From Omnitrophica bacterium GWA2_41_15 (lineage in GTDB: Bacteria; Omnitrophota; Gorgyraeia; Gygaellales; UBA12090), in assembly GCA_919902675.1 (NCBI GenBank), contig CAKKRH010000001.1, forward strand, positions 64,003-128,002: DNA of 64,000 nt, given 5' to 3'. Under the pieces are notes generated by a model. It was not told the origin of the DNA. It was given only the letters and a program-made list of their open reading frames with translations, and did no database searches. Below, one piece after another: positions 26,741 through 29,137 of this stretch. Positions within the stretch are counted from its first letter, which is position 1; the number at the start of each line of letters is the position of its first letter. The position numbers and the translations under genes are program-made.

Positions 26741-29137
26741 ATGAATCAAGAAAAGCTTTCTGTCGAAGCAAAGATTAAGCAAATCGACGAGCAAATCGCA
26801 ATGCTGACGAAACTAAAATCGCAGTATGCAGAGAAGCTCAAAGGTTTGAATGATATGGAAGCCATTGTCACGAAGCCCATAGACAGCAGTCAATCGTCTA
26901 ATGATCATACGCTTTTGCTGAAAGAATATTTCCGCGGTCGTGAGGATGTTTATGCCAAGATGTGGGTCAATAACCGAACGGGTAAGCGCGGTTATAGTCC
27001 GGTTTGTAAGAATGAATGGGTGCGCACTTTCTGTCGCAAGCCTGCGGTTAAGTGTTCTGAGTGCCCGAATCAACAGTTTTTGCCTTTCGACGAGGTTGCT
27101 ATCCGCCAACACTTAGATGGCCGACAGGTTATCGGTGTTTATCCTATGCTTAAGAACGAGAGCTGTTATTTTTTAGCTATAGATTTTGATAAGGAAAATT
27201 GGCTTGAGGATATTCGGGCGATTATGGCAACTTGTCGTGAAGAAGGAATTCCAGCAGTAGTGGAGCGGTCGCGTTCCGGAAGCGGCGGACATATCTGGAT
27301 ATTTTTCAGCGAAGAGGTGCCAGCGATCTTAGCGCGTAAACTTGGCAGTTCTTTGATCACCAAGACTATGGTTAAGCGATATCAGATAGATATGAAAAGT
27401 TATGATCGGATATTCCCAAATCAGGACACAATACCCAAGGGCGGATATGGAAATTTAATTGCGATCCCATTTCAAAAAGAAGCCATGCGTAGAGGCAACA
27501 GTGTTTTTATTGATGATAATGGACAGCCATATCTGGATCAATGGGCACATTTATCTTCTATCAACAAGTTGTCTTATCGCGATATTGAGGCACTCATAGA
27601 TGAGGCTTCAAAGAATGGTCAGATTATTGCCGTGCGCCAGAGCCCGGTTGAGGAAGACGATGAACCATGGATGCGTTTGCCTTCGGGAAAGCTGCGGTTT
27701 AAGGTTGACATTAGCGAATTACCGGAGGCGCTGGATGCCGTTCTTGCTAATCGGATATACATTAAGACTGAAACTGGCCCCTCTGTTTTGTTTAACCAGT
27801 TAAAGCATTTGGCCGCGTTTCAGAATCCTGAATTTTACAGAAAACAGAGAATGCGTTTTTCGACACATGACACACCGCGGGTTATTTGTTGCGCGGAGAT
27901 TGTTGATGGGTATTTATCTTTGCCAAGAGGCTGCTTGGATGATGTTAAGGCTTTGCTTAGCGAGTATGGCGTACGACTAAACATTATTGATAAACGATTT
28001 ACCGGACGAGAGGCGAATTTTATTTTTAATGGCAAGCTTACAGATGAGCAGGATAAGGCATTAAAAGAAGTGCTGGATTCTGATTTTGGCGTATTTGTTG
28101 CTCCTCCTGGAGTAGGGAAAACAGTTCTGGCGCTTGCCGCGGTTGCCAAGCGAAAGACGAATACGTTAATTCTTGTTCACCGCAAACCCTTGATGGATCA
28201 ATGGCGATTACAGGCATCGTCGCTTTTTAATATCAATAAAAAGGAGATCGGTCAAATAGGCGGAGGTAAGAATAAGCCTAACGGGATTATTGATATTGCC
28301 ATGGTTCAAAGTATGGATTTATCTGATGGCGTGGATGACCGGATTATGGATTACGGGTTTGTTATAGTTGATGAATGTCATCATGTCGGCGCTGTGTCCT
28401 TTGAGAAGGTTCTGGCGCAGGTTAAAGCTAAATATGTATTGGGGTTAACTGCGACACCTTACCGCCGGGATGGGCATCAGCCGATCATTCATATGCAATG
28501 CGGGCCTATCTGCCATCAAATTAAGCGGAAGGATATTTCTGCGCATATCGCGAGTTCACAAGTTATCCTGCGGTCAACCAAGTTTGAATATCCATGGTCT
28601 GATGAGTCGCGAATATCCGATGTATGGGGTGAGTTACTCAAAGATAGCAGGCGCAATGATATGATTGTTAATGATATTCTTAGCATCGTGGATGAAGGGC
28701 GGTTTCCTTTGATTTTGACGGAGCGTCGTGACCATCTGGAGATTTTGGAGGAGCGCTTACGGGACAAGGTTGACTTTCTCGCGGTCTTGTATGGAGGAAT
28801 GGGGCGGAAGAATCAGCGAGAAATATTCGAACGAATTAAAGAAAATGCCGATGGTGCTCGCAGGGCTATTTTAGCGACAGGCTCATATATTGGCGAAGGC
28901 TTTGACGAGCCCCGGCTGGACACGCTTTTTCTGACGATGCCCAGCTCTTTCAAAGGCAAGATTGTTCAGTATACAGGGCGTTTGCACAGGTATCATCATG
29001 ATAAGCATGATATTCGGATTTATGACTATATTGATTCCCGATTGCCGATTTTGGAAAGGATGTTTAAGCGTCGTTCGAAGACGTATAAATTATTGGGGTA
29101 TGAGATTAAAGATCATCTGAGCGTTAATAGTCAATGA
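26741..29137 (+). CDS. Archaeo-eukaryotic primase (AEP/PrimPol)-like domain fused to an SF2 DEAD/DEAH-type helicase
   Basis: AEP motifs FLAIDFD, SGSGGHIWIFF and YDRIFPNQD. Zn cluster CKNEWVRTFCRKPAVKCSEC. Helicase motifs APPGVGKT, VDECHH, LGLTATP and QYTGRLHR. Start ATG 26741 lies 2 nt after the upstream stop. Confidence 0.8.
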   Translation: MNQEKLSVEAKIKQIDEQIAMLTKLKSQYAEKLKGLNDMEAIVTKPIDSSQSSNDHTLLLKEYFRGREDVYAKMWVNNRTGKRGYSPVCKNEWVRTFCRKPAVKCSECPNQQFLPFDEVAIRQHLDGRQVIGVYPMLKNESCYFLAIDFDKENWLEDIRAIMATCREEGIPAVVERSRSGSGGHIWIFFSEEVPAILARKLGSSLITKTMVKRYQIDMKSYDRIFPNQDTIPKGGYGNLIAIPFQKEAMRRGNSVFIDDNGQPYLDQWAHLSSINKLSYRDIEALIDEASKNGQIIAVRQSPVEEDDEPWMRLPSGKLRFKVDISELPEALDAVLANRIYIKTETGPSVLFNQLKHLAAFQNPEFYRKQRMRFSTHDTPRVICCAEIVDGYLSLPRGCLDDVKALLSEYGVRLNIIDKRFTGREANFIFNGKLTDEQDKALKEVLDSDFGVFVAPPGVGKTVLALAAVAKRKTNTLILVHRKPLMDQWRLQASSLFNINKKEIGQIGGGKNKPNGIIDIAMVQSMDLSDGVDDRIMDYGFVIVDECHHVGAVSFEKVLAQVKAKYVLGLTATPYRRDGHQPIIHMQCGPICHQIKRKDISAHIASSQVILRSTKFEYPWSDESRISDVWGELLKDSRRNDMIVNDILSIVDEGRFPLILTERRDHLEILEERLRDKVDFLAVLYGGMGRKNQREIFERIKENADGARRAILATGSYIGEGFDEPRLDTLFLTMPSSFKGKIVQYTGRLHRYHHDKHDIRIYDYIDSRLPILERMFKRRSKTYKLLGYEIKDHLSVNSQ

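Follow-up and report, generated by a model that had tools for sequence, protein, structure and literature searches.

We analysed a 64,000-nucleotide stretch of DNA from Omnitrophica bacterium GWA2_41_15 (contig CAKKRH010000001.1, positions 64,003 to 128,002; hereafter the window), in which a complete gene at 26741..29137 on the plus strand encodes a protein of 798 amino acids plus stop. This gene very probably belongs to the IEE family, in which a Z1568-like AEP domain of the Prim-Pol clade is fused to an XPB/UvsW-like superfamily 2 (SF2) ATPase and which includes the insertion sequence (IS)-excision enhancer of Escherichia coli. A preliminary description, made from the letters of the window, had proposed either a TOTE conflict-system component or the primase-helicase of a decayed integrative element. 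Neither interpretation identifies the protein, which, judged by its sequence, is a full-length relative of IEE, the characterised E. coli enzyme. It adds a phylogenetically distant member to a family already known and characterised by experiment, and it does not represent a new kind of system.

The comparator was ECs_1305/Z1568 of E. coli O157:H7 Sakai, annotated as "IS-excision enhancer IEE" (NC_002695.2, 1378953-1381313). IEE of E. coli O157:H7 is the subject of Kusumoto et al. 2011 and Calvo et al. 2023 (PMC9943667). By BLASTP, the window protein and IEE share 45% identity and 62% positives over 743 amino acids (639 bits), in a colinear alignment of residues 49-789 of the former with residues 43-777 of the latter. 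The Pfam models found in the window protein are also found in IEE, namely PF22548 AEP-TOTE (1.7e-98), ResIII, DEAD and Helicase_C. Moreover, full-length identity of IEE to 79 of the family members retrieved with the window protein ranges over 40.6-59%; IEE is therefore nested inside the family of that protein and is not a sister group to it. In the literature, the AEP domain of IEE is the "Z1568-like family" of the Prim-Pol clade (PMC9943667, PMC5862659). Since IEE and the window protein both match PF22548, Pfam AEP-TOTE is a later name for this Z1568-like/IEE AEP family, and the two labels come together in one sequence family.

The correspondence extends to individual catalytic positions. Residues D142, D144, H178, D216, K451, R735 and Y128 of IEE are D148, D150, H184, D222, K460, R747 and Y134 in the window protein, and all seven are invariant in alignment A2. 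Tyr128 of IEE takes the place of the histidine with which LigD-type AEPs select ribonucleoside triphosphates (PMC9943667). The sequence features of the family are present: motifs A (hDhD), B (sxH) and C (hD), Tyr for His, the Walker A lysine, a DExH box and an arginine finger. The top HHpred templates published for IEE are UvsW and CAPP (review 10.1101/2023.06.07.543989), and the fold of the window protein, a CAPP-like AEP domain followed by an XPB/UvsW-like ATPase, is consistent with them. The same review reports IEE homologs from a wide range of phyla, in agreement with the distribution observed here.

Domain architecture and conserved residues

The reading frame is genuine and intact, as the preliminary description had taken it to be. 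A mechanical call places the open reading frame at 26660-29137 on the plus strand; the start at 26741 (MNQEKL...) agrees with the N-termini of homologs and yields the 798-residue product. A protein from a Candidatus Omnitrophota metagenome-assembled genome (P0001) is 100% identical to it and is named "DEAD/DEAH box helicase family protein" at NCBI. Pfam matches to AEP-TOTE (PF22548; E=1.1e-94, scoring 316.8 bits where the cut-off is 27), ResIII (1e-23), DEAD (1.7e-11) and Helicase_C (2.8e-6) bear out the earlier domain reading, in which a complete SF2 helicase-like module is fused to an AEP Prim-Pol domain. This motif and domain content is confirmed to lie far beyond chance.

An AlphaFold2 model (mean pLDDT, the predicted local distance difference test score, 78) lays the protein out as a long N-terminal helix, the AEP domain, a beta-rich middle domain and two RecA-like lobes. 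The N-terminal element, previously called a coiled coil, is modelled as a single long helix of residues 2-36 (26744..26848, plus strand; pLDDT 80-91 for residues 1-30), which may be a coiled coil. A low-confidence linker follows at residues 37-51. The helix is weakly conserved among homologs and lies outside the alignment to E. coli IEE.

The AEP polymerase domain (Prim-Pol clade, Z1568-like/Pfam AEP-TOTE) spans residues 59-284 (26915..27592, plus strand), as delimited by its match to PF22548. It also matches the PADLOC profile PDLC01465, "PrimPol, CAS-associated," at 3.5e-91. In a Foldseek search of the PDB, it resembles the CAPP Prim-Pol structures 7nqd and 7nqe with a template modelling (TM) score, normalised to the target, of 0.77-0.80. 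All of the catalytic motifs that had been listed for this domain are in place on the plus strand. Motif I/A, IDFD, occupies residues 147-150 (27179..27190), where D148 and D150 would be metal ligands as the equivalents of IEE D142 and D144. Motif II/B, SGSGGHIW, occupies residues 179-186 (27275..27298), with H184 corresponding to IEE H178, which contacts nucleotide phosphates. Motif III/C, YDRIFPNQD, occupies residues 221-229 (27401..27427), with D222 corresponding to IEE D216. These metal-ligand and phosphate-contact roles are taken from the study of IEE (PMC9943667).

Inside the AEP domain lies a four-cysteine cluster at 27005..27064 on the plus strand. The preliminary description had seen this cluster and miscounted one of its intervals: the spacing is C89-x8-C98-x6-C105-x2-C108 and not C-x8-C-x7-C-x2-C. 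Among 72 homologs, conservation of the four cysteines is 94-99%; in alignment A2 they do not vary, and E. coli IEE has them too. The cluster is a putative metal-binding element. Under the keywords "zinc" and "cysteine," PMC9943667 makes no mention of it.

Ahead of the ATPase core, residues from about 325 to 420 form a conserved beta-rich middle domain (27713..28000, plus strand), delimited by secondary structure at pLDDT 72-94. Its conservation is strong, for example at F360, N362, F365, Y366 and P395-R396-G397-C398. Foldseek alignments to XPB span about 485-500 columns, the XPB and UvsW matches together taking in the C-terminal 480-500 residues, and the middle domain probably corresponds to the N-terminal domain found in XPB-type helicases.

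The SF2 helicase-like ATPase of the XPB/UvsW/RadD kind spans residues 432-765 (28034..29035, plus strand) and is recognised by ResIII, DEAD and Helicase_C, whose matches lie within residues 432-751, by sequence matches to XPB/Rad25 and by its fold. The best structural matches are XPB (6p4o, E=1.8e-19) and T4 UvsW (2oca, 3.1e-18). Here, too, every helicase motif listed before was found, all on the plus strand: Walker A, APPGVGKT, at residues 454-461 (28100-28123); DECHH at residues 544-548 (28370-28384); TATP at residues 570-573, followed by a RED-like YRRDG (28448-28474 together); and motif VI, QYTGRLHR (QxxGRxxR), at residues 743-750 (28967-28990), in which R747 corresponds to the IEE arginine finger R735.

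Conservation was assessed across 72 aligned full-length homologs whose source genomes represent many phyla. D148, D150, H184, D222, K460 and R747 are invariant or nearly so, and the same is true of D544-E545-C546-x-H548, with histidine almost always at position 547. The catalytic Asp and His residues, whose conservation the preliminary description had singled out as a check, are thus conserved among homologs.

Genomic setting of the gene and its homologs

Thirty-one open reading frames of the window were scanned for families. The IEE homolog is the final gene, at the edge, of a low-GC island (15584-26739; GC down to 0.35-0.39) that separates it from the nuo operon at about 6.3-15.4 kb. The island carries AbiEi (15584-16417), AbiEii fused to a WYL domain (16414-17850), RadC (17847-18548), an HSDR_N_2/N6_Mtase protein, that is, a restriction-modification methylase (18559-20634), a separate S subunit (20649-22043), a 536-residue SEC-C-motif protein (22144-23754) and several reading frames that match no family (23729-24010, 24003-24653 and 24675-25463). 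On the 3' side of the IEE homolog lie an ABC-F ATPase, an acetyl-CoA synthetase and a pyruvate:ferredoxin oxidoreductase.

No intact partner gene adjoins the IEE homolog, as had been noted before. The next gene downstream is the ABC-F ATPase, and the reading frame that abuts its start upstream (26083-26739) is a chimera of transposase-like and RhuM-like fragments. By tblastn, residues 9-142 of this chimera resemble a transposase (30% identity), and residues 91-206 resemble the RhuM family (45-55%). A perfect 14+14-nucleotide palindrome, GTAGGGGCGAACGG/CCGTTCGCCCCTAC, lies within it at 26341-26368 (codons about 87-96), close to the N-terminal limit of the RhuM-like match, and could be a hairpin like a repetitive extragenic palindrome (REP) or a minus-strand terminator. 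Promoter-like sites are not in excess of the shuffled expectation. Elsewhere in the window, a 1,449-residue reading frame (1290-5639) in a low-GC stretch (0.37-0.40) has no Pfam match at E<=1e-4, and one of 1,188 residues (44054-47620), in another low-GC stretch (0.39-0.42), matches Methyltransf_28 in its central part and, weakly, further methyltransferase models.

The family is large. Database matches at E<=1e-10 number more than 7,997 proteins, and each of the best 120 has the architecture of roughly 800 residues. We fetched 80 genomic loci and four more by exact look-up, and 85 loci entered the neighbour clustering. They come from Omnitrophota, Planctomycetota, Elusimicrobiota, Firestonebacteria, Nitrospirota, Acidobacteriota, Verrucomicrobiota, Cyanobacteria and Clostridia, as well as from Delta-, Gamma- and Zetaproteobacteria. 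BLAST clustering of 1,169 flanking reading frames at the 85 loci found no conserved partner gene, with no family present at more than 15 of them. Gene maps differ from locus to locus throughout, and the families common to several loci are generic island cargo: AlbA_2/HATPase_c_4, AAA_14-DUF4143, AbiE, Fic and PIN.

Pfam censuses of 277 neighbouring proteins at 79 loci give the same flat picture in the 25 most frequent families that were listed. Among the 127 neighbours at positions +/-1, HATPase_c_4 occurs eight times, ResIII six times, DEAD, PIN and AlbA_2 five times each, AbiEii, DUF4143, AAA_14 and Helicase_C four times each, and Fic and Bles03 three times each. The 150 neighbours at +/-2/3 are similar, with a maximum of 6/150, and DNA methylases are among the frequent homolog neighbours. 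With no conserved neighbour, differing maps and flat censuses, we conclude that this is a solo gene that travels in variable islands.

Some variation within the family deserves separate mention. A Bles03/DUF1917-like gene of about 136 residues shares 28 nucleotides with the 3' end of the IEE homolog in three loci and overlaps its start in a fourth (L014, L067, L033 and L027); it is the sole recurrent, tightly coupled neighbour (4/85 loci). Longer variants of about 955-969 residues, with a C-terminal extension, occur in Clostridia and gut elements (L074-L078, L111), and others reach about 1,055-1,064 residues (P0100, L022), one of which (P0100) has a metallophosphoesterase domain (PF00149/PF12850). 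In L037, L057, L071 and L081, the IEE-family gene is split into two adjacent reading frames, which could reflect pseudogenisation or assembly frameshifts.

Some homologs are carried on mobile DNA. In PLSDB, 98 plasmids, mostly alphaproteobacterial conjugative plasmids or megaplasmids, encode full-length homologs of about 45% identity, next to a cyclic-oligonucleotide-based antiphage signalling system (CBASS) in one case. On three alphaproteobacterial plasmids (L085, L086 and L087), the homologs, also of about 45% identity, adjoin three tandem tyrosine recombinases, which we take to be the "recombinase in trio" arrangement. DUF736 genes lie nearby on all three, an ArdC-like gene on two and a ParB-like gene on one; on L085 and L087, one and the same DUF736 gene stands on either side of the recombinase trio. 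Among viral sequences, IMG/VR yielded one match in a single-protein scan and about 32 full-length matches (34-47% identity) in a profile scan. In the one such contig that was annotated (L111), three integrases flank the homolog and no phage structural genes were seen, so this contig looks like an integrative element and not like a virus.

These settings bear on the earlier proposal of a primase-helicase left behind by an integrative element or plasmid that decayed around the gene. AEP-helicase fusions are common as mobile-element replicases (PMC5862659), and the integrases, recombinase trios, IMG/VR contigs and upstream gene fragments could all be read in its favour. That proposal is nevertheless so improbable that we set it aside, since 25400-29400 contains no iterons, repeat arrays or origin-like repeats, the window has no tRNA, hence no tRNA integration site, and no integrase among its scanned reading frames, none of the 50,697 phage genomes in INPHARED has a match covering >=80% of the protein, homologs are not consistently placed within replication modules and have highly variable neighbourhoods with no conserved replication gene, the plasmids that carry them have their own typed replicons, and the ATPase is of the XPB-like SF2 kind, not a hexameric replicative helicase, in a family whose studied member does not unwind DNA.

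Predicted activity and alternative explanations

The account of IEE biochemistry given here follows Calvo et al. 2023 (PMC9943667). The AEP domain of IEE is an error-prone DNA polymerase that depends on Mn2+ and copes with dislocation of primer and template. Its C-terminal domain shows DNA-dependent ATPase activity but no unwinding of duplexes; what it does is stabilise DNA binding, limited strand displacement and synapsis. The full-length protein joins 3' single-stranded overhangs that share a microhomology of at least 4 bp, and both domains are required for this joining. In vivo, IEE increases the excision of elements of the IS3, IS1 and IS30 families, solely when their transposase is active, and also produces adjacent deletions (PMC9943667; 10.1101/2023.06.07.543989). 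In E. coli, co-occurrence of the gene with elements of these families stands at 94.75% (PMC9943667). Two mechanisms have been proposed: end joining of transposase-made breaks after resection (PMC9943667) and a microhomology-guided strand switch in the copy-out replication step (10.1101/2023.06.07.543989).

Because the architecture and all catalytic residues are conserved, we infer a similar enzymology for the window protein. Its AEP domain would be a Mn2+-preferring, low-fidelity DNA polymerase, tolerant of primer/template dislocation, that finds short microhomologies, bridges two 3' single-stranded ends and extends them. Its helicase-like domain would hydrolyse ATP in a DNA-dependent manner and, rather than unwind DNA, would clamp the double-stranded portion of the substrate and keep synapsis stable. 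In the cell, the substrates would be DNA intermediates made by the transposases of copy-out-paste-in IS elements of the IS3, IS1 and IS30 families, and the outcome would be precise or near-precise IS excision together with adjacent deletions. Both this activity and an IS-excision role in the Omnitrophota bacterium are drawn by analogy from E. coli IEE, and for the role in the living cell the analogy amounts to an extrapolation.

Several points weigh against this assignment of function. The E. coli protein alone has experimental data, and 45% identity is no guarantee of an equal role in vivo. The scanned reading frames of the 64 kb window include no intact IS, whether of the IS3, IS1 or IS30 family or another, and the sole transposase-like sequence is the fragment at 26083-26350. 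Across the family, a phmmer search of all locus reading frames with IS600 OrfB found IS3-type transposases within 10 kb at only 2-3 of the 85 homolog loci, which means that there is no local IS3 linkage. For IEE itself, the in vivo mechanism is disputed between end joining after double-strand breaks and copy-out strand switching. Lastly, the family often occurs in islands with toxin-antitoxin and restriction-modification genes, where a defence role would fit too.

The last point leads to the first of the alternatives, which we regard as unlikely: that the protein is a stand-alone conflict effector of the TOTE kind, whose AEP/ATPase attacks or aborts the replication of invading DNA (phages, plasmids), with the E. 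coli IS excision as a side effect. The name of the Pfam family and the PADLOC match to a CRISPR-associated PrimPol point this way. So do the company of AbiEi, AbiEii-WYL, RadC, the restriction-modification methylase and the S subunit in the adjoining island, the commonest neighbours of the homologs (AlbA_2/HATPase_c_4, PIN, AbiEii/AbiEi, AAA_14-DUF4143, Fic and DNA methylases), and the homologs on conjugative plasmids, beside CBASS in one case. However, location in an island counts for little, since toxin-antitoxin and mobilome genes accumulate in such places for a variety of reasons. Our literature searches found no anti-phage phenotype for the IEE family, and those on Prim-Pol plus helicase defence yielded only fusions of reverse transcriptase and PrimPol of the DRT type, which belong to a different family. 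The sole experimental phenotype is IS excision.

The partner genes of a TOTE system are also lacking. TOTE stands for TPR, OB, TBP and Effector, as given in a passage of PMC12458937 that cites Aravind, Iyer and Burroughs 2022. Among the scanned reading frames of the window, there was no TPR or cold-shock-domain match that could mark a TPR-OB gene, and no TBP family was reported. Likewise, no TPR, cold-shock or TBP family is among the 25 most frequent families of the homolog neighbours. As the TPR-OB and TBP partners were not found in these scans and only the effector-type domain is present, membership of the gene in a TOTE system is not supported. The TOTE label given in the preliminary description thus holds at the level of the Pfam domain model and not as membership in the system.

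Very unlikely, in our estimate, is a general enzyme of DNA-damage tolerance or double-strand-break repair, acting by repriming or by microhomology-mediated end joining in the service of the host or of mobile elements and independently of transposases. It would draw on the behaviour of IEE in vitro, where microhomology-mediated end joining and lesion-tolerant, dislocation-prone synthesis proceed without a transposase (PMC9943667), on the resemblance of the ATPase to the repair helicases XPB, RadD and UvsW, on the argument that most bacteria are without a dedicated end-joining system (PMC9943667) and on a window in which no IS is seen. Yet the family has a patchy distribution with horizontal transfer, and its genes sit in variable islands or on plasmids, which is atypical of a housekeeping repair gene, and the in vivo effect in E. 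coli needs an active transposase.

On a wider reading, which is rather unlikely yet conceivable, IEE-family proteins are single-gene, broadly distributed immunity factors against mobile elements that abort the replicative intermediates of invaders in general. Their targets would be IS circles, rolling-circle or conjugative DNA and possibly phage DNA, on which a microhomology-seeking polymerase and its ATPase would act, with the four-cysteine cluster needed for priming or substrate sensing. If this were true, the excision of IS elements seen in E. coli would be a single manifestation of a conflict function that reaches further, and the "TOTE conflict" label would be reconciled with the IEE literature. 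The recurrence of the family in toxin-antitoxin/restriction-modification islands and on conjugative plasmids may leave room for such a broader role.

Comparison with known systems

The likeness of the window protein to TOTE systems lies in its AEP domain, which falls within PF22548, the Pfam family named after them. The IEE clade works without TOTE partner genes, and a separate, TOTE-linked subclade of PF22548 may well exist elsewhere. An NCBIfam scan of the window protein gave no model above its cut-off and no IEE- or TOTE-specific match. For annotation, the value of the present assignment is that an NCBI "DEAD/DEAH box helicase family protein" and a Pfam "TOTE conflict system" label can be replaced by reference to the experimentally studied IEE family.

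The nearest solved AEP fold is that of CAPP from Marinitoga sp. 1137 (PDB 7NQD/7NQE; PMC8211822), which phmmer recovers at E=1.4e-8. The two differ in sequence, at about 22% identity, and in layout, since in the window protein a four-cysteine insert precedes the aligned region on its N-terminal side and the polymerase is fused to an XPB-like ATPase. The NCBIfam CAPP model NF040561 scores 104.8 bits against a cut-off of 200. With this score, and with no cas genes among the scanned window reading frames and hence no CRISPR-Cas context, the window protein does not classify as a CAPP.

For residues from about 330 to 790, XPB/Rad25, T4 UvsW and E. coli RadD are the top matches in both sequence and fold. 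A RED-like element, R-x-D, is present after motif III (YRRDG), with R575 and D577 invariant. Sequence identity to these proteins lies at about 15-18%, and the match to the NCBIfam XPB model reaches 66 bits, where the cut-off is 610. Unlike XPB, the ATPase of the window protein is fused to an AEP polymerase and has no Bax1 or TFIIH partner, and, unlike the XPB, UvsW and RadD translocases, its IEE orthologue does not unwind DNA in vitro (PMC9943667). For specialists, the conserved four-cysteine cluster and the middle domain that resembles the XPB N-terminal domain may be of interest.

The closest comparison is with IEE itself. The hosts differ, E. coli in one case and Candidatus Omnitrophota in the other, and the window protein has the additional N-terminal helix of residues 2-36. 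Copies of IS30, IS66 and IS3 lie directly 3' of iee in the SpLE1 element of Sakai, whereas no IS3, IS1 or IS30 is visible near the window gene. Upstream of iee in SpLE1 (L170, 30-2799), there are a DUF3987 protein, ECs_1303, and a 187-residue protein with a weak REP_ORF2-G2P match. With IEE-like enzymes reaching uncultivated phyla such as Omnitrophota, the range of a mechanism that removes IS elements and creates deletions would become wider. Across this distance, the two proteins remain alike in size (798 and 786 residues), in domain order and in the DECHH motif, and both are encoded by single genes without a conserved partner in horizontally acquired DNA, which for IEE is SpLE1.

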